Assembly (NCBI GenBank): GCA_963751345.1
Contig: CAVVUS010000001.1
Location: forward strand, 1 to 64,000
DNA: 64,000 bases
Direction of reading: 5' to 3'
Origin: an uncultured Chloroflexia bacterium
GTDB taxonomy: Bacteria > Chloroflexota > Anaerolineae > B4-G1 > SLSP01
Made by a program: the position numbers and the translations under genes. Positions 4,951 through 29,355 of the stretch are shown one piece after another. Numbering within the stretch: position 1 is the first letter of the stretch; each line of letters begins with the position of its first letter. The notes below the pieces were generated by a model. That model saw only the letters and a list, made by a program, of their open reading frames with translations, was not told where the DNA came from and made no database searches.

Positions 4951-6363
4951 TGCTCGCGATGACGAAGCTCTCACGCTGGGTGCGCTCACTGCAGGCGCAG
5001 TTGATCCTTTGGGCGATACTGCCGGTCACGCTCGTGATCATTGGCCTGGCCTTTACGGGTGTCTACTCACACCAGAAGGTGATGCAAGACTTCGTCATCG
5101 AGCGCGACATGCTGACGGCAAGGCTGATCGCCCTGCGCCTGGAGGATGCCCTCTCACGCGGCGACCTTTCTCCAGGAGGCGAGGACCTTGCAGCGTGGCT
5201 ACCGATCACCGCTGATGAGCTGCCGGGGGCCGTATGGATCGTGGATCGCGATGGCCGCCTCATCGCGAACAGCGATGGGCCGTATCGGCAGCTCGGTGGT
5301 GGGCACACCCGGCGTGGCGGAGGCCCTCCGGCAGCCGGAGGGTGCTGTCATCGTTCCCAACTCGCCGTCAGGCCCCCTCGTCGTCACGTACGCCGCCGTT
5401 CGGGGCGCCGAGTGGCACGTCATCATCCGGGAGCCCGCACAAGACCTTATCGGACCTATCCTCCGATTCTCCAGCCTTGGACCTATCGCAGCCGCTATCG
5501 CAGCAGGCCTCTCTGTCCTCATCCTCACCTTCGGCTGGCGGACCATTGTCAGGCCCCTGCAGCGCCTTTCCAAGGCCGCCAGCCAGGTATCGTGGGGAAA
5601 CCACGCACTCATCGGCGAGGATCCCGGGGGCGTGGCCGAGATCGGGGAACTCCACCGCACGCTGTCGGAGATGGTCCGGCGCCTGGAAGGCTATCAGGCC
5701 GGTGTGCTCGACTATCTGGATGCGGTCACGAAGGGGCAGGAAGAGGAACGGGCGCGACTGGCCCGCGACCTCCACGACGGGCCGGTCCAGAGCTTGATCG
5801 CGCTCAACCAGCGTATCGAGATGGCGCGCCACCGGATCGAGCGAAACGACGTCATCGGTGCGGAATCGCTACTGGGTACGCTGCGGGAGGCCGAGGTCGG
5901 CGTGATTGACGACCTGCGGCGCACCATCAGCGCACTCCGCCCGGCTTACCTAGAGGATCTCGGCTTCGTGCCGGCCCTGGAAATGCTGGTGGAGGCCGCA
6001 GATGCACGCAGCGATAGCCAGGTGAGGCTTGAGGTGGGGCCCGAACCTCGCCGACTCCCACCCGAGACAGAGCTCGCGGCCTACAGGATCACCCAGGAAG
6101 CCCTAAGCAATGCGCTTCAGCACGCTTCCGCGAGCAGCATTACGGTCAGGGTCACGTGGTCTGAGCAAGGGCTGTCGCTGGTGATCGATGATGACGGCGT
6201 TGGCTTTCAGCCCGCCGCACGCCTCGATGCGTACACCCGTGGGGGACACTTCGGTCTTGTCGGGCTGCAAGAACGCGTCAGGCAGCTCGGCGGCACACTC
6301 GAGATCCGGTCCGCCCCCGGCGTAGGCACCACCCTCTCGGTACAACTGCCCGACGTCCACTGA
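4950..6363 (+). CDS. Membrane sensor histidine kinase (HAMP + HisKA_3 + HATPase); frameshift near 5278
   Basis: Two TM segments, HAMP, EERARLARDLHDGPVQSL, QEALSNALQHA, DDGVGF, GHFGLVGLQERV. ORFs 4950..5909 and 5146..6363 join across an indel. Confidence 0.88.
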
Positions 6364-23169: not shown

Positions 23170-23568
23170 ATGGATCACTGCAAACGTATCCTGGTTGTAG
23201 ATGACGACGATCGCGTCAGATTTGTCCTGACCGATGTATTGCGGAAACTCGGGAGTGACTACGAGATCGTAGCCGCAGGCAGTTGTCGTGAAGCTCTCTC
23301 CCTGGCCCAGGAATCGAGATTCGATCTGATGATTACGGATTTGCGGCTGCCGAGATCGGACGGTCTGGCCCTCACCTCAGCTCTTGCGAAGCTGAGCCCG
23401 GACACCAAGGTCATCTGGATCACGGCGCACGGCTGCTATCACTATCGGGCGTCAGCCAAACGGCTCGAAGTCGAGCGGTGTTTGGACAAGCCGCTGGAGA
23501 TCCAGAGCATTCGTCAGGCTGCGCTGGACGCCCTACGTAACGGCCATAATCGATACATGAAGACTTGA
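23170..23568 (+). CDS. Single-domain (CheY-like) response regulator
   Basis: ILVVDDD, DLMITDLRLP (phospho-Asp), ITAHG, LDKP. Confidence 0.88.
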   Translation: MDHCKRILVVDDDDRVRFVLTDVLRKLGSDYEIVAAGSCREALSLAQESRFDLMITDLRLPRSDGLALTSALAKLSPDTKVIWITAHGCYHYRASAKRLEVERCLDKPLEIQSIRQAALDALRNGHNRYMKT

Positions 23569-23668
23569 CGGCATCTCTCTCGCCTCATACATCTAGCCAA
23601 TGCACCGAACTTCGGGGGTGAGGGGAATATCCTCACCCCCGAGGGGTTTCTGCAGAGCGGTGACGGAC

Positions 23669-24181
23669 ATGAAAGACTCCGAGATCGTCGATCGAGAATT
23701 CAGGCATAACAAGACAAGATACGTAGTCCAGTGCTTGTTAGCCACCCTGTGTATTCTTGCCATTCTACTGACGTTGGACATCATTAAGCACACCGTCTCA
23801 ATAGCTTCACTGGGCGCCAGCTCCTTCATCGCCTTCGCTATGCCTCACCGGAGAGCGTCACAGCCGAGGCTGCTCGTTGGCGGTTACCTGATCGGTACTC
23901 TATTCGGTTGTCTCTGCTTTGCCGGAGCGACGGGCCTGGCCGGCGTGTGGCCATCCATAAGCCACGTTGCCGTTGAGACATTCTTCGCAGCCCTGGCTGC
24001 CGGCCTGACCATCTTCGGAATGGTTGTAACCCAGAGCGAGCATCCACCGGCAGCAGGGCTTGCTTTGGGATTCGTGATCAACGGCTGCGATCTTCGCACA
24101 ATCGTCGTCGTCATGCTGGGGATCACAAGCCTTACCGCCATCAAGACGCTGGCCAAACCGCTGCTCATTGACCTAACGTAA
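23669..24181 (+). CDS. HPP family membrane protein
   Basis: ASLGASSFIAF..P...SQPR, SEHPPAAG motif, several TM helices. Confidence 0.85.
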   Translation: MKDSEIVDREFRHNKTRYVVQCLLATLCILAILLTLDIIKHTVSIASLGASSFIAFAMPHRRASQPRLLVGGYLIGTLFGCLCFAGATGLAGVWPSISHVAVETFFAALAAGLTIFGMVVTQSEHPPAAGLALGFVINGCDLRTIVVVMLGITSLTAIKTLAKPLLIDLT

Positions 24182-24211
24182 TGACTCGACGTAAATGCGG
24201 AGGCAGAAAGC

Positions 24212-24526
24212 ATGGAAAACCAGAAGGAACGCCTGACGCAGGAACTGCAAGCGCTGGATGAGCAAATTGCCACACTGAAGCAGGCCCTTACCGTGAAACC
24301 GGAATACGGCATGGGCAAGGGCGATCCGGCGATCACGCAATGGGAGCTTGATCAGGCCATGCTTGAGCGTCTGGAGCGACACTCAGACACACTGAGGCAG
24401 GCCCTCGATCGTCTCAAGGCAGGCACCTACGGCATCTGCGAGCGCTGCGGGAAGCCTATCAACCCGGAACGCCTTGCCGTACTGCCTGACACAACCCTAT
24501 GTATGGCCTGTGCTCAAAAGGGGTAA
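24212..24526 (+). CDS. TraR/DksA family C4 zinc-finger transcription factor
   Basis: Coiled coil followed by GTYGICERCGKPINPERLAVLPDTTLCMAC. Confidence 0.88.
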   Translation: MENQKERLTQELQALDEQIATLKQALTVKPEYGMGKGDPAITQWELDQAMLERLERHSDTLRQALDRLKAGTYGICERCGKPINPERLAVLPDTTLCMACAQKG

Positions 24527-24726: not shown

Positions 24727-25884
24727 ATGGAAGCGATAGACTTACGCGAAGACCTAGACGGCTTCGATGATACAACTGAAGCATACGATGAGGAAATCGA
24801 GGAGGAGGAGGAAGAGCAAGAGAATGACCTCCTTTCTTTGGATGAGATCTTTGGAGTAGACTCCGATGAGGAGGGACTCGAAGGAGATGCACTGGACGAC
24901 TTTCACCTCTTTTTCCAGGATGAGGAAGCCGAAGAGGAAGATCTCGATGAAGACGAACCCATCGTGGACATCAGTAACATCGCAGCCAATGACTCACTGA
25001 GTCTCTATCTCCAGGAAATGGGGCGGGTGCCGTTATTGTCCCGTGATGAGGAGATTGAGTTAGCCATATATATGGAGCAAGGTCGAGAGGCCCAGCAGAA
25101 GCTGGCCACTGACCGACACGATCCTGCAAATATCGATGAGTTGGAGGATGAGATTCGGCTCGGGCAGGAAGCCCGACGGCACTTGATCGAGGCCAACACG
25201 CGCCTGGTTGTCAGCGTCGCCAAGAGGTATCGTGGCTACGGTCTGCAGTTCCTGGATCTGATCCAGGCCGGCAACGTGGGGCTCATTAAAGCCGTGGACA
25301 AGTTCGACTATCATCGCGGCAACCGTTTCAGCACCTATGCGACGTGGTGGATCCGCCAGGCTGTGACGCGGTCGCTGACCCAGCACGGACGCGGTATCCG
25401 TATCCCCATCCACATGAGCGATTACCTGCGAAAGCTCGACAAGATCTCGCAGAACATGGAGCAGAAGCTGGGTAGGCGTCCGACGACCGAGGAACTGGCC
25501 GAGGAAGTCAACGAGGACCCTATCAAGCTCCGCAAGATGCTGCGCCAGTCACAGACGCCGGTCTCGCTGAACAAGGAAGTGGGCGATGAGGACACGTCAG
25601 AACTGGAGCAGTTTATCGAGGACGAGTCGACCCCCACACCGGATGAATCGGCCGAGGAACGGATGTTGCACGAGCAACTGGAGCAGTTGCTGACGACGCT
25701 AGAGCCGCGCGAGGCGTGGATCCTGCGGATGCGGTTCGGCCTGCACGGAAGTAGGACACACACCCTGAAGGAACTCGGGCAGAAGCTGGGAATTTCGAAG
25801 GAACGTGTTCGCCAGATTCAGGGACAGGCATTGAGGAAACTTCGACACCCCTACCATCGACGGCAGCTTCAGGACTTCCGCTAG
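24727..25884 (+). CDS. RpoD-like (group 1/2) sigma70 factor with an acidic N-terminus
   Basis: Region 1.2 DSLSLYLQEMGRVPLLS; region 2 LIEANTRLVVSVAKRY..DLIQAGNVGL..FSTYATWWIRQA; region 4 TLKELG..SKERVRQI. Confidence 0.9.
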   Translation: MEAIDLREDLDGFDDTTEAYDEEIEEEEEEQENDLLSLDEIFGVDSDEEGLEGDALDDFHLFFQDEEAEEEDLDEDEPIVDISNIAANDSLSLYLQEMGRVPLLSRDEEIELAIYMEQGREAQQKLATDRHDPANIDELEDEIRLGQEARRHLIEANTRLVVSVAKRYRGYGLQFLDLIQAGNVGLIKAVDKFDYHRGNRFSTYATWWIRQAVTRSLTQHGRGIRIPIHMSDYLRKLDKISQNMEQKLGRRPTTEELAEEVNEDPIKLRKMLRQSQTPVSLNKEVGDEDTSELEQFIEDESTPTPDESAEERMLHEQLEQLLTTLEPREAWILRMRFGLHGSRTHTLKELGQKLGISKERVRQIQGQALRKLRHPYHRRQLQDFR

Positions 25885-25940
25885 ACTTACCCATGCCGGG
25901 CAGGTTCGCGGGCGAAGAGCAGTGTGTGATCACAGAGCGA

Positions 25941-25963
25941 GGGCACTCAACGTCTGAGTGCCC
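25941..25963. terminator. Hairpin between the convergent sigma and encapsulin genes
   Basis: gggcactca-acgtc-tgagtgccc, a perfect 9-bp stem. Confidence 0.5.
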
Positions 25964-25999
25964 CCGTTCATCACGTAATGTGGCTGTGGGCAGCCGGAG

Positions 26000-26753
26000 C
26001 TACCCCTCCAACTTGCAGATCGCGCCCGCGCGCTTGACCCGCAGTGCGACCGTCTCCAGGACGCGGAAGCAGTGGTCAAGTCCGTCGTTGCCTGTCATAG
26101 GCTGTCACGAGATCCTGCCCCACCACGAGGTCGAAATTATAGGGTGCCAGTGAGAGGACCATGCCCTGTCCATCGCCCAACAGTTGAGAGCGATAGATGC
26201 CGCCCTCGGCAACATCCTTGATAAGGTCTCCGACCAGCCGCCCCATCCCCTGTGAGACACGCTGGGTACTCACGTAGAGATCGGGGCTCAGGATGACCGC
26301 ATAGGGACCATAGAAATCATCAGAGAAGAGTGCCTCGGTCGCCGCCACGACGCTCGCCAGGGGCCCTTCCGCCTCCCCCCAGTTTCCAAGGGACACGCTC
26401 TTGTCGGCTATATCCCACAGACCGCCAAGAACCATCTTGTCCTCAGCCTTGGCGCAGGCCATCGCTGCCTGTGCAGCGGGGCCGAGCTCCAGCGGCAGAC
26501 CCAACCTGCGGCTCGCCTCGATGTCGCGCCACTTGAGTACGAATTCCTCACTGATTACTTCGATCGAGATCTGATCTCGATTCTCTCCGGACCCGACAGG
26601 AATGACCTCCATCCCCGCCCCGAATGGGCCGACAAGGTCGAGCAGCCGCCGCCCGACCAAGAACTGGCGTGCGGCACTCACAACGACCTGGTCGATCGCC
26701 TCCCACTCCGAATCCGACAATGGAACAGCACTCCGCATGAGATAGTCAGCCAT
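26000..26753 (-). CDS. Family 1 encapsulin shell protein (Linocin_M18 / EncA-like), about 250 aa; one-base frameshift near 26096
   Basis: YLMRSAVPLSDSEWEAID..ARQFLVGRRLLDLVGPFGAG, WRDIEA, AEDKMV, GPYAVILSP, DLVVGQD. The shifted frame continues GNDGLDHCFRVLETVALRVKRAGAICKLEG-stop (TAG at 26000-26002), the canonical encapsulin C-terminus. Confidence 0.9.
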
Positions 26754-26769
26754 TGGTATCCTCCTGATT

Positions 26770-27690
26770 CTACTTCAAACTACCTACGGTTAGTTCATCC
26801 TTGGATGACGCGGCCTCGGGTTCCGCCTCTTCAGCCGTCTCCATCAATTCCTTCAGCACCGTGGTCAGCAGCCCGTCCCGCGTGACGATGTTGTCGATCT
26901 CTACCTTGAGAGATTCGTGCTTCGCGATCTCCGGGTCCTGGCTGAAGGCAATCAAGCGCTCCTGTGCCTCCTCGGTCAAGGCGAGGTCCGAGGTCAGCGC
27001 TGACATGGGCGAACTGCTGAGATCCACACCCGGGTAGTCAAAGGGGAGCTCCTCGCCCGCATCGGCGACCTCCTCGGCGAAATGCGACATATTCTTCATA
27101 TGCCGCATAGCCGTCAGCTCGAGCTCACTGCCTACAGGACAGACCGGCTCACCCAGCACAAACGCCTGGCGCAGGTGCTGAAGCACGAGTTTGTAGTGAG
27201 CATCTACCTCCGTGTGGAACCGGACGATCATGTCGGGTGAGAAACTGGGCTCATCGAAGAGCAACGGCTCCTCGCCTTGGGGCCCCAGCTTCTCCAACCA
27301 CATCTCGAACCTGCGCTGATGGGTGACGGACTCCCAACCGAGCTGGTTGAGCACACGCTTGAGCTCACGCTCCTCAACCTGATCCGCCTGCTCGGCGTAC
27401 ATCTTCACCAGACCCGCCTCCCACTCGATGTAGGATCGCAGAAGAGAGGCATTTGAGGCCCCGTCATAGGGATAGATGCCCTTCTCCATAAGCGGCTCTT
27501 CGCCCTGTTCCCCGATCTCGTCCCCAAGCCAATCCATGTGCCACATCTCTTCGCGGGCCGTAGAGAGCAGCATCTCACCGAACGGCGTGGTCTCGCCCAC
27601 CTGATAGGCGTGAATCAGGTAGCGAAGAATCGAGGCGTGCTCATCCGCCAGATCCTTGTTAAGCATCTCGATAAACGCTTGTCGATCCAT
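26770..27690 (-). CDS. Tandem two-domain bacterioferritin-like encapsulin cargo with a C-terminal targeting peptide
   Basis: Domain 1 LNKDLADEH..Y..EEMWH..WE..ESVTH; an internal repeat forms domain 2; an acidic linker leads to ELTVGSLK-stop, directly upstream of the encapsulin. Confidence 0.88.
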   Translation of the reverse strand: MDRQAFIEMLNKDLADEHASILRYLIHAYQVGETTPFGEMLLSTAREEMWHMDWLGDEIGEQGEEPLMEKGIYPYDGASNASLLRSYIEWEAGLVKMYAEQADQVEERELKRVLNQLGWESVTHQRRFEMWLEKLGPQGEEPLLFDEPSFSPDMIVRFHTEVDAHYKLVLQHLRQAFVLGEPVCPVGSELELTAMRHMKNMSHFAEEVADAGEELPFDYPGVDLSSSPMSALTSDLALTEEAQERLIAFSQDPEIAKHESLKVEIDNIVTRDGLLTTVLKELMETAEEAEPEAASSKDELTVGSLK

Positions 27691-27755
27691 ACAATACCCT
27701 CCTCAGATTACGTTAGAGCGACCAAGTATGTGTTTCCGCCACGGAATCCGCAGCT

Positions 27756-27761
27756 ATTATA
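27756..27761 (-). promoter_or_regulatory. Putative -10 box (TATAAT) for the cargo-encapsulin operon
   Basis: Perfect TATAAT on the minus strand about 65 nt upstream of the cargo ATG; GAGGAGG RBS present. Confidence 0.45.
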
Positions 27762-27918
27762 TACCCAGCAACCGCCCCGCAAAGCAAGCGCGTCGGGCTG
27801 TACATATGGCGGGCCGGATGTACCATTGGGTCCTGAGAACTATGCACACCCGCGTCTTTCCCTTCGACGCCGGCCGTGCTGCTCACGACCAACTGCCCGC
27901 AGAAAGGATTCGCCAACA

Positions 27919-29355
27919 ATGATGGAGCAACTCTACCGAGAGCGCCTGACCCGCTATCTGACCGCGATGCGCAACGAAAAACCGGATATGGTCCCCATCC
28001 GGCCGTTCGTCGCCGAGTTCACCGCCAAGTACGCCGGCTTTACGTGTCAGGATGTCACCCACGACTACAACAAAGCGTTTATCGCCGCACGCAAGTGCGC
28101 CGCCGACTTCGACTGGGATGCGGTCGTCTCGAATATGGTCTACGTGTGGACCGGGCTGACGCAGGCCATCGGTCTGACCTACTATGGCGTCCCCGGCCTT
28201 GACGTCCCGCCCGACACCGGATTCCAGTACAGGGAGCCGAGTGAAGAGAATGCCTTCATGAAGGCGGACGAGTATGATGAGTTGATCGACGACCCTACCG
28301 CCTTCCTCTACAACACGTGGCTCCCGCGGGTCTCGCAGGACATCCGCCCGATGGGCGCCCCGACATCGTATCGCAACAACCTGGCCCTCGTGAAAGGTGC
28401 TACGGCGATGGCGAATTACTTCGCCGCGTACGGCCCGCACGTCGACCTGCTGCGGACCGAGAGCGGCACCGTCTCCGCCATCGCGGGCATCTTCAAGGCG
28501 CCCTTTGACATCCTGGCCGACAAGCTCCGCGGCTACATCGGGCTGACGATGGACATGGTCGAGCAGCCGGACAAGGTCCTCAAGGCCTGCGAGGCGTTGA
28601 TGCCCCACCTCTACAACACGGCCTTGACGTCGTCCGATCCCAACCACCAGGTGCCCATCGGGTACTGGATGCACCGCGGCGGCATCCCGTTCGTCTCGAG
28701 AGGACAGTTCGAGTCACACTATTGGCCTACGGTGAGGCCCATCATCGAGGAGCTGTGGCGAAACGGGCACCAAACGCTCTTCTACGCTGAGGGAGACTGG
28801 GGTCACCACCTCAACAGCTTCACCGAACTTCCCGACCACAGCATTGTCTATCACGTGGACCGGGGCGATATCTTCAAGACGCAGGAAGTACTGGGGCACA
28901 AGTTCTGCCTGAGCGGCGGCATTCCCAACTTTGAGCTCGCCTACGGCACGCCCAAGCAGGTGCGCGACATTGTCAAGAAGGTCATCGACGGCGTAGCACA
29001 GGATGGCGGCTACATCATGGATGCCAGCGCGATCATGCAGAACGACACGTCCATCGAGAACCTCAAGGCGATGACGGATGCCACGCGGGAGTACGGCGTC
29101 TACTCCGGGGTCGCCTCCCGGCTTGCCGATCTCGACGAGCAGGTCGCGCCACCACAGGACGCCGTCTTCGGCGAGAGCTATGGCATGCCCGATACCTCGG
29201 ACCTCAAGGTCCCCGCCGGACAGTGCATCCCGTGGGCTGAGAAGCGCAAGGAGATCCCCGAGATCTCCGGGGACGTGGACCTCGCCCAGCGCATCTGGGA
29301 GGAGGTCGATGCCCCGGCCAACAGCTTTATCTGGCAGGTCCTGCTCTCGTTCTGA
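27919..29355 (+). CDS. Uroporphyrinogen decarboxylase / methylcobamide methyltransferase (MtaA/CmuA-like) family protein
   Basis: AMRNEKPDMVP, APFDILADKLRG, FESHYWPT, LFYAEGDW, CLSGGIP, DGGYIMD. Confidence 0.8.
   Translation: MMEQLYRERLTRYLTAMRNEKPDMVPIRPFVAEFTAKYAGFTCQDVTHDYNKAFIAARKCAADFDWDAVVSNMVYVWTGLTQAIGLTYYGVPGLDVPPDTGFQYREPSEENAFMKADEYDELIDDPTAFLYNTWLPRVSQDIRPMGAPTSYRNNLALVKGATAMANYFAAYGPHVDLLRTESGTVSAIAGIFKAPFDILADKLRGYIGLTMDMVEQPDKVLKACEALMPHLYNTALTSSDPNHQVPIGYWMHRGGIPFVSRGQFESHYWPTVRPIIEELWRNGHQTLFYAEGDWGHHLNSFTELPDHSIVYHVDRGDIFKTQEVLGHKFCLSGGIPNFELAYGTPKQVRDIVKKVIDGVAQDGGYIMDASAIMQNDTSIENLKAMTDATREYGVYSGVASRLADLDEQVAPPQDAVFGESYGMPDTSDLKVPAGQCIPWAEKRKEIPEISGDVDLAQRIWEEVDAPANSFIWQVLLSF

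Follow-up and report, generated by a model that had tools for sequence, protein, structure and literature searches.

A double ferritin-like protein with unusual metal-site residues encoded next to a family-1 encapsulin in an uncultured Chloroflexia bacterium

Introduction

How could a bacterium oxidise and store iron using a protein that resembles two bacterioferritin (Bfr) subunits joined in a single chain, and that is encoded beside the gene for an encapsulin shell? The question is raised by a locus in a 64,000-nt stretch of DNA from an uncultured Chloroflexia bacterium (positions 1 to 64,000 of contig CAVVUS010000001.1, GenBank assembly GCA_963751345.1), the whole of which we call the window. 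An open reading frame (ORF) on the reverse (-) strand at 26770..27690 encodes a protein of 306 aa, and the gene of a family-1 encapsulin shell lies directly downstream. An initial annotation had suggested that the protein is a duplicated Bfr-like four-helix bundle that could bind haem between its two halves, with one near-canonical and one degenerate di-iron site, and that it would use the encapsulin in place of a 24-mer cage.

We find that the protein is a further double ferritin-like protein (DFLP) with unusual metal-site residues, and not a new kind of system. The DFLP family has been described in a preprint by Anuchina et al. 2025 (bioRxiv 10.1101/2025.09.13.676036), and the interpretation in the initial annotation is essentially that published description; it is supported, but it is not new. 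The only new element is the pattern of ligand residues in the clade to which the protein belongs, i.e. Ser121 in the N-terminal domain and H/H/H/N/T/D/L in the C-terminal domain. Taken as a whole, we consider it likely that the DFLP is a single chain mimicking the subunit dimer of Bfr, and that it is the core cargo of the downstream family-1 encapsulin.

Two ferritin-like bundles in one chain

The protein divides into an N-terminal domain (NTD; residues 1-140, 27271..27690), supported by PF00210, VIA comparison and residue counts, and a C-terminal domain (CTD; residues 150-290, 26821..27243), supported by hhalign, VIA comparison and clade statistics. These and all other features of the DFLP and encapsulin genes given below are on the reverse strand. 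The two domains are related to each other, as the proposal of an internal duplication demands. Comparison of residues 1-140 with 150-290 by BLASTP gave an E-value of 5e-06 over 46 residues, with M49 falling on M198. Profile-profile comparison of the NTD and CTD family alignments using hhalign gave a probability of 99.9 and an E-value of 5.9e-32 over 127 columns. This alignment pairs E17 with H165, Y24 with H172, E48 with H197, M49 with M198, H51 with N200, E91 with T239, S121 with D272 and H124 with L275.

An AlphaFold2 model calculated from a 143-row alignment has a mean predicted local distance difference test (pLDDT) score of 94.5 and a predicted template modelling score (pTM) of 0.90. It contains two four-helix bundles, with helices at residues 3-31, 36-61, 80-104 and 108-140 in the NTD, and 152-179, 186-210, 228-250 and 259-289 in the CTD. 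Using VIA-align, residues 1-140 match the Dps-like 8w1d (Z 19.8, root-mean-square deviation 1.8, 136 residues aligned), the mini-bacterioferritin 9qq4 (Z 18.5), 2qqy (Z 18.4) and the bacterioferritins 1nf4 (Z 18.1) and 9h1u (Z 18.0). Residues ~145-295 match the ferritins 3oj5 (Z 16.1) and 4zkh (Z 15.8).

The second domain is hard to recognise by standard searches. The Pfam family PF00210 covers residues 7-133 only (E 1.2e-5), with no Pfam family match in the second half of the protein, and a sequence search of the PDB with the CTD alone reached 9viw with an E-value no better than 0.069. A Foldseek search of the PDB with the model returned only single-domain ferritin or Bfr entries, none of them at E <= 0.001, and the matches in the wide VIA search were likewise to single-domain proteins. 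Because the hhalign alignment, the AlphaFold2 model and the VIA matches to ferritins all point the same way, we conclude from sequence profile and model that domain 2 is indeed a ferritin-like bundle.

A member of the DFLP family

A family profile built from 143 homologues matches chain 9viw_A of the PDB (entitled 'Bacterioferritin', 306 aa) with an E-value of 2.7e-82 in a single stretch, aligning 4-302 against 13-304. This is also the best solved relative of the single sequence, at an E-value of 9.6e-17, and both M49 and M198 share alignment columns with Met residues of 9viw. 9VIW is the structure of TmDFLP (Anuchina et al. 2025).

The properties of the characterised family members are taken from the same preprint. 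The two domains are paired in the crystal of TmDFLP in the manner of a Bfr dimer, with M48 and M198, stated to be 100% conserved in DFLPs, forming a putative intra-chain haem site. The TmDFLP NTD has the ligand set EEHEEH with partial iron density, while the CTD has ESHEEH and no ligand density; the protein has ferroxidase activity. Cys184 makes an inter-protomer disulfide in the crystal. Across the family EEHEEH is kept in 79.6% of NTDs and 57.3% of CTDs, and ESHEEH (13.3%) and KKQVEQ (8.9%) are named as further patterns. When expressed in E. coli the haem content was ~8% for TmDFLP and ~3% for CaDFLP. Targeting peptides for encapsulins were found in 56 DFLPs, as core or secondary cargo.

The end-to-end profile match and this description agree with the reading of the window protein as a single chain of two Bfr-like bundles, and we consider it highly likely that it belongs to the DFLP family and acts as encapsulin cargo. 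Two further proposals hold by homology. One near-canonical di-iron site together with one degenerate site corresponds to the occupied NTD and the ligand-free, non-canonical CTD of TmDFLP, and the use of an encapsulin in place of a 24-mer cage corresponds to the homodimers and targeting peptides of DFLPs. Two-bundle Bfr-like cargos had been said to be known from encapsulin genome mining, and a passage of Andreas & Giessen 2021 does note two-bundle "Bfr" cargos in Chloroflexi. The statement that no example had been characterised is outdated by the preprint as far as the family is concerned; it stands for the exact pattern of ligands.

Ligand residues and a Chloroflexota clade

Of 2342 candidates in a homologue search, 206 proteins passed E <= 1e-3; the best 120 of these are 49-75% identical to the window protein and come mostly from metagenome-assembled genomes (MAGs) of Anaerolineae. 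A representative search gave 169 proteins. The alignment comprised the window protein and 202 of 269 fetched proteins, i.e. those of 250-400 aa, leaving out shorter fragments and one protein of 1277 aa. Its rows split sharply, with 120 at >= 54% identity to the window protein, and 82 at <= 40% (19-40%); the latter, distant DFLPs show how low the identity is to proteins of the TmDFLP kind. The 120-row clade counts the window protein itself and leaves out the near-duplicate P0001.

A FastTree phylogeny was calculated for 109 rows, sampling one in three of the 117 clade rows of >= 280 aa (39 including the window protein) and adding all 70 others. The near group is set apart by a branch whose SH-like support is 96, and is nested within a group that has support of 100. 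Moving outwards from the near group, P0123, which is of the KKQVEQ type, comes first, and then P0122 and P0128. The last two have a canonical CTD, yet already have E120-S121 in the NTD.

The residues named in the initial annotation were all found as claimed. In the NTD (within 27271..27690) these are E17, Y24, E48-M49-x-H51, E91 and H124, with Ser121 at the position of Bfr E127 and Glu120 one residue before it. In the CTD (within 26821..27243) they are H165, H172 (at the Tyr25 position), H197-M198-x-N200, T239 and L275, with an identical mapping by hhalign. The domain 2 equivalent of E127, which had not been listed, is D272 by hhalign, preceded by R271. Met49 (codon 27544..27546) corresponds to Bfr Met52 and TmDFLP Met48, and Met198 (codon 27097..27099) to TmDFLP Met198. 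Both haem-Met positions are kept throughout the homologues. The M49 column is Met in 199/203 rows (3 gaps and 1 Ile), and the M198 column in 201/203, including 120/120 in the clade.

The NTD site of the window protein, E17/E48/H51/E91/S121/H124, is thus not the canonical EEHEEH. Ser121 and H124 are each present in 120/120 clade rows, and E120 in 117/120, while distant DFLPs have D120-E121 in the NTD, with E121 in 72/82. A further difference concerns Cys184 (codon 27139..27141), which falls in the same column as Cys184 of TmDFLP where it aligns with 'KDC' of 9viw. Cys is found here in 103/120 clade rows versus 28/82 distant rows.

In the CTD of the clade H197, M198, T239 and L275 are invariant (each 120/120). 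H172 and H200 are nearly so: H172 is present in 107/120 (Glu in 12), and H200 in 112/120 (Asn in 6, the window protein among them). Position 165 varies, being Glu in 55 rows. Positions 165, 271 and 272 covary without exception in the clade, with E/Q/E in 55 rows and non-E/R/non-E in 65. The latter subgroup has mostly Q or H at 165, R at 271 and N at 272; the window protein has H165/R271/D272, and its nearest relatives have Q165/H172/H197/N200/N272.

Mapped onto Bfr, the CTD has none of the 'site B' ligands (E94 replaced by T, H130 by L), and the subgroup of the window protein is also devoid of both 'site A' carboxylates. We therefore read the CTD of the window protein as probably non-catalytic. 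That H197, T239 and L275 never vary may nevertheless point to a function. The cluster H172/H197/H200, joined by E165/E272 in one of the subgroups and by H165/D272 in the window protein, could form a new mononuclear metal site, or a proton or electron relay next to the haem, so that both domains would work but with different chemistry. The three His positions are conserved well above the mean CTD column conservation of 0.70 in the clade, the 55-row subgroup with E165/H197/H200/E272 keeps four positions of the Bfr 'site A' type as potential ligands, and invariant T239 and L275 suggest a fixed new architecture rather than drift. Yet both carboxylates are replaced in the 65-row subgroup of the window protein (Q/H165, N272), with Arg at 271, the nearest relatives keep just two of the His residues, and the window protein has the rare N200. 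Moreover, the CTD of TmDFLP showed no metal density (Anuchina et al. 2025), and the proximity of the His side chains is itself deduced from the positions of their Bfr counterparts. We regard a working CTD site as unlikely, and prefer the reading of a CTD that has lost its di-iron centre.

The main text of the DFLP preprint contains no occurrence of 'Chloroflex', 'Anaerolinea' or 'EEHESH', and mentions neither an NTD site with Ser nor a His-rich CTD. According to its account of the data set, the 157 DFLPs analysed were required to have two detected ferritin domains (bioRxiv 10.1101/2025.09.13.676036). Since Pfam detects only one domain here, the clade may lie outside those 157 proteins.

The encapsulin shell and the probable role as cargo

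The shell gene (26000..26753; PF04454 1.9e-44, NF041155 3.3e-49) begins 16 nt downstream of the DFLP gene on the same strand. The DFLP ends in ...DELTVGSLK, in which residues 300-305 (26776..26793) form the targeting peptide LTVGSL, of the type [LF]-x-[VI]-G-x-[LI]. This is the same motif as the peptide of Myxococcus xanthus EncB/C/D (bioRxiv 10.1101/2025.09.13.676036). A targeting peptide is present within the last 25 residues of 119/120 clade members. The adjoining shell gene and the peptide together uphold the assignment of the protein as encapsulin cargo.

The arrangement is conserved. We collected 80 related loci from GTDB genomes, of which the first thirteen (L001-L013) are from Chloroflexota MAGs and encode proteins of 52-92% identity. 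In 13/13 of these the DFLP gene has a family-1 encapsulin gene directly downstream in the same orientation. The remaining loci (L014-L080, e.g. L024 at 5001-5813) encode a DFLP-like sister group, mostly from Thermodesulfobacteriota MAGs, that is 36-42% identical and matched over residues 1 to ~270 only. The representative of this type, P0123, has KKQVEQ in its CTD and no targeting peptide. Using tblastn with a single Chloroflexota query (E <= 1e-5), an encapsulin was found in 0/67 of these loci, a search too narrow to pick up a shell gene that is divergent or lies beyond 5 kb.

As assembled, a 1-nt insertion near 26094-26096 truncates the shell ORF of the window (26076-26753, 225 aa), leaving the last 32 codons in another frame at 26000-26098. 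The frame-shifted tail, ...GNDGLDHCFRVLETVALRVKRAGAICKLEG, equals the C-terminal end of the orthologues in L001 and L004, which are intact at 250 aa, and PF04454 covers 2-253 of the 253 residues of the L001 shell protein. In tblastn a single alignment spans at least residues 1-248 of the shell in 13/13 related loci, but no more than 1-219 in the window. Four public contigs span the site (records 1 and 2 of X1, record 9 of X4 and record 12 of X7). They are 93-98% alike to the window, with 3 to 12 other differences each, and 4/4 lack one base at 26094 or 26096. Because all four lack the base, the insertion is probably an assembly error; otherwise it would be a strain-specific lesion, none of the contigs being identical to the window.

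This bears on the possibility that the operon is decaying, i.e. that the shell is truly frameshifted with loss of its last 31 residues, and that the cargo is free in the cytoplasm or idle. The extra base of the assembled window, and an ORF of 225 aa compared to 250 aa in the orthologues, would fit such decay. Against it stand the public contigs, the intact and conserved 32 codons downstream and the intact cargo gene, and in our view a very long contig would fit an assembly prone to insertions and deletions. We consider decay very unlikely, and think that the locus probably encodes a full-length shell with its cargo.

We note an inverted repeat, GGGCACTCA-n5-TGAGTGCCC, at 25940-25975, just after the encapsulin stop codon, where the sigma-70 and encapsulin genes converge. 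For want of a following T-run the scan did not call it a terminator.

Oligomeric state

TmDFLP and CaDFLP were found to be dimers or monomers, and not cages, by size-exclusion chromatography with multi-angle light scattering (SEC-MALS) and by SAXS (small-angle X-ray scattering), and AlphaFold3 gave no DFLP cages (Anuchina et al. 2025). For the window protein we predicted a complex of two copies of residues 1-292 with two haems, the haems being unscored. The score was 0.82, compared to 0.04 for the best of 3 controls. The mark set for this score is reached by 20/30 proteins whose solved structure is a pair of one chain, compared to 1/23 solved as single chains. Contacts agree between the runs to at least 100%, and the pLDDT of the partner is >= 89. 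In the predicted interface helix D of the NTD (108-130) contacts helix D of the CTD (259-281) of the other chain, and residues 33-39 contact 33-39. Cys184 is outside the confident predicted contacts, which is not evidence against its touching the partner. The model supports a homodimer for the window protein, although a similar dimer has already been solved in 9VIW, so that the good score may reflect likeness only.

Might the cargo instead form a Bfr-like cage inside the encapsulin, giving a shell within a shell? This was raised for two-bundle Bfr cargos in the passage of Andreas & Giessen 2021, and the NTD is Bfr-like by VIA comparison. With the solution data on both characterised DFLPs against it, as well as the AlphaFold3 results, and with the complex model of the window protein favouring a closed two-fold dimer, we give this explanation almost no credence. 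A homodimer remains our preferred state.

Comparison with related systems

The window protein is most like TmDFLP of Thermocrinis minervae (9VIW). They share a length of 306 aa, two Bfr-like bundles in one chain matched end to end by profile, the Met pair at 48/49 and 198, the Cys184 column and a C-terminal x-T-[VI]-G-x-L peptide. The homodimer is observed in TmDFLP and predicted for the window protein. The differences lie in the metal sites, canonical EEHEEH in the TmDFLP NTD versus Ser121 at the fifth ligand, and ESHEEH in its CTD versus H-H-N-T-D-L, and in the location of the gene, which is away from an encapsulin (secondary cargo) in T. minervae whereas the window protein is core cargo. 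CaDFLP of Caldanaerovirga acetigignens is encoded directly upstream of a family-1 encapsulin gene, as in the window, and has a C-terminal peptide of the FTVGSL type; it is from a Firmicute and does not have the Cys that the window protein has at position 184.

Classical Bfrs (E. coli 1BFR, Desulfovibrio desulfuricans 1NF4) share the four-helix bundle, a site of E/ExxH/E/ExxH type in the NTD, and a Met of helix B that ligates haem on the two-fold axis, and the profile match has an E-value of 9e-22. These are single domains of ~158 aa that assemble into a 24-mer cage, in which haem is held at the junction of two chains. In the window protein, by contrast, the 'subunits' are fused in a 306-aa chain in which neither domain has a full EEHEEH, the second bundle is devoid of di-iron ligands, and an HK97-fold shell supplies the storage cavity.

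Hetero-oligomeric Bfrs split the haem and ferroxidase roles between subunits. Here too one bundle would be competent as a ferroxidase and the other deficient, but in one chain rather than on separate polypeptides within a 24-mer. The family profile matches chains of one such protein, 9h1u, with E-values of ~3e-6 to 5e-6.

Family-1 encapsulins have other ferritin-like ferroxidases as cargo, EncFtn/Flp and the M. xanthus EncB/EncC proteins, which share the LTVGSL peptide, and EncC (7s8t) gives a weak local profile match (E 1.7e-11). EncFtn, however, comprises half-bundles of ~100-130 aa, which assemble into decamers and have their di-iron sites between subunits, unlike the window protein, and the EncFtn/EncB models (TIGR04535, NF058679) are far below their cut-offs, with 23.3 versus 90 and 20.5 versus 125 bits, and a local match at 83-143 only.

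The mini-bacterioferritin 9QQ4 and the Asgard double ferritin dFTN have Bfr-related bundles with a conserved Met pair, and dFTN is likewise a fused double domain with a pseudo-two-fold axis (bioRxiv 10.64898/2026.08.25.747088). That preprint, which comes from the same group as the DFLP paper, describes cage-forming Asgard double ferritins and restates that DFLPs are dimers. Both 9QQ4 and dFTN form 12-subunit cages with canonical di-iron sites in every domain, unlike the window protein. The word encapsulin does not occur in the dFTN preprint.

A proposed mechanism and the cofactor

We propose that the LTVGSL peptide could tether the DFLP to the inner face of the shell. There it would be a homodimer, not a cage, by analogy with TmDFLP and in agreement with the complex model. 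Fe2+ entering the shell would be oxidised at the NTD di-iron site formed by E17/E48/H51/E91/H124, with Ser121 replacing the second bridging Glu and Glu120 beside it, and the Fe3+ would then mineralise in the lumen of the encapsulin, which would stand in for the 24-mer cage. Because of the homology with Bfr and the near-invariance of both Met residues, we suggest that haem, or another iron tetrapyrrole, may be bound between the domains on Met49 and Met198, and take part in electron transfer as in Bfr. The CTD, its di-iron centre presumably lost as judged from conservation, would contribute mainly the second Met, a partner surface for the pseudo-two-fold and the interface of the dimer.

A number of observations weigh against this scheme. 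Haem was absent from the TmDFLP crystal, and the site was only 3-8% occupied in solution (bioRxiv 10.1101/2025.09.13.676036). The genome to which the window belongs (5.40 Mb in 49 contigs, 93.4% complete) gave no match for ferrochelatase (PF00762), ChdC/HemQ (PF06778) or an AhbA/B-type domain (PF17805), although an incomplete MAG cannot prove their absence. The invariant H197 and near-invariant H172 and H200 could signify a CTD site that works rather than one that is dead, and the assembled window carries a frameshift in the shell gene. Lastly, the DFLP that was assayed has a canonical EEHEEH NTD, whereas Ser is found in 120/120 of the clade, so that ferroxidase activity with Ser121 is assumed by analogy. 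Non-haem ferritins work with a single bridging carboxylate, and such activity is therefore plausible.

The low haem content leads to a different view of the cofactor site, that it binds another iron tetrapyrrole such as Fe-coproporphyrin III instead of haem b, or is empty in vivo. The DFLP authors themselves suggest selectivity for another type of haem (Anuchina et al. 2025), and mini-bacterioferritins from native sources bind Fe-coproporphyrin III, according to the dFTN preprint (bioRxiv 10.64898/2026.08.25.747088). The mini-Bfr 9qq4 is among the closest matches to the NTD, with a profile E-value of 8.5e-26 in addition to its VIA score, and the failure to find ferrochelatase or ChdC points in the same direction. 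Yet genes missing from a 93%-complete MAG are weak evidence. The genome also encodes the haem-dependent COX1 and two cytochrome c assembly proteins, so haem should be available to the cell, and the near-invariance of both Met residues argues against an empty site and for some axially-ligated cofactor. We hold this alternative to be possible but doubtful, and retain a haem-type cofactor between M49 and M198 as the likelier reading.

Genome context and expression signals

The DFLP gene is the only PF00210 match in the genome, and the adjoining shell gene the only PF04454 match. Because there is no second PF00210 match, the DFLP-encapsulin is probably the main iron-oxidising and iron-storage device of the organism. 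In a survey of 60 genomes of relatives plus that of the window (E <= 1e-10) a DFLP match was found in 25/61, and in 15/21 of the same genus.

The divergent neighbour of the DFLP gene, at 27919-29355 on the forward (+) strand, encodes a URO-D-family protein of 477/478 aa, and is beside the DFLP gene in 5/13 related loci. It was considered as a link to haem synthesis and rejected. There are 43 PF01208 matches in the genome, a large expansion of paralogues, among which only that at C10:212259-213242 looks like a full-length HemE; the neighbour is an ordinary paralogue, scoring 52.7 bits and matching profile positions 126-346 only. On the other side, a gene for a 385-aa RpoD-like sigma-70 factor with an acidic N-terminal extension (24727-25884, forward strand) converges on the encapsulin gene, and is present in 8/13 related loci. 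Upstream of the sigma factor, at 23170-24526, are genes for a stand-alone response-regulator receiver (23170-23568), an HPP-family membrane protein (23600-24181) and a DksA/TraR-type zinc-finger protein (24212-24526).

A Shine-Dalgarno sequence GGAGGG (27697..27702) lies 6 nt before the ATG of the DFLP gene, and GGAGG is found just 5' of the start in 14/14 orthologous upstream regions. A possible TATAAT box, identified by eye and weak as evidence, is at 27756..27761, 65 nt upstream of the ATG; an exact TATAAT is present within the last 160 nt upstream in 8/14 orthologous regions. A consensus scan of 25850-27960 for promoters and terminators found no promoter on the DFLP strand and no terminator. 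On inspection of the 14 upstream regions by eye the ribosome-binding site alone was common to all, and no systematic search for a Fur/PerR-type box was made.

Metatranscriptome contigs (X7) that are 90-99% alike to the window cover 25963-26684 and 27228-27413, and with these the greater part of the encapsulin gene and a section of the DFLP gene. They hint weakly at expression of the operon in a close relative, DNA carry-over being an alternative source of the contigs. In the four public runs about 26924-27179 of the cargo gene had no contig cover, which says nothing on its presence, and the shares of the public runs (0.05-0.39) are too small for naming a habitat.

Implications for the DFLP family

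The fused Bfr pseudo-dimer, the intra-chain haem site and the use of an encapsulin as the storage shell are already in print. The window points in addition to a large and uniform Chloroflexota branch of the DFLPs, in which both metal sites depart from those of the characterised proteins. The branch raises three questions. Can iron be oxidised with Ser at the position of the bridging Glu? Is the His-rich CTD inert? And which tetrapyrrole, if any, lies between the two Met residues?

A more far-reaching combination of ideas is that the clade escaped the DFLP census, its CTD being unrecognised by domain models, that it turned the CTD di-iron pocket into a conserved His-based site (His197, Thr239 and Leu275, with His172/His200) beside the haem, and that it remodelled the NTD site via Ser121/Glu120. 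We think it rather improbable that all of these hold together. If they did, the protein would be a fused 'catalytic plus regulatory/electron-relay' ferritin unit, with a chemistry so far undescribed for any ferritin-like protein.

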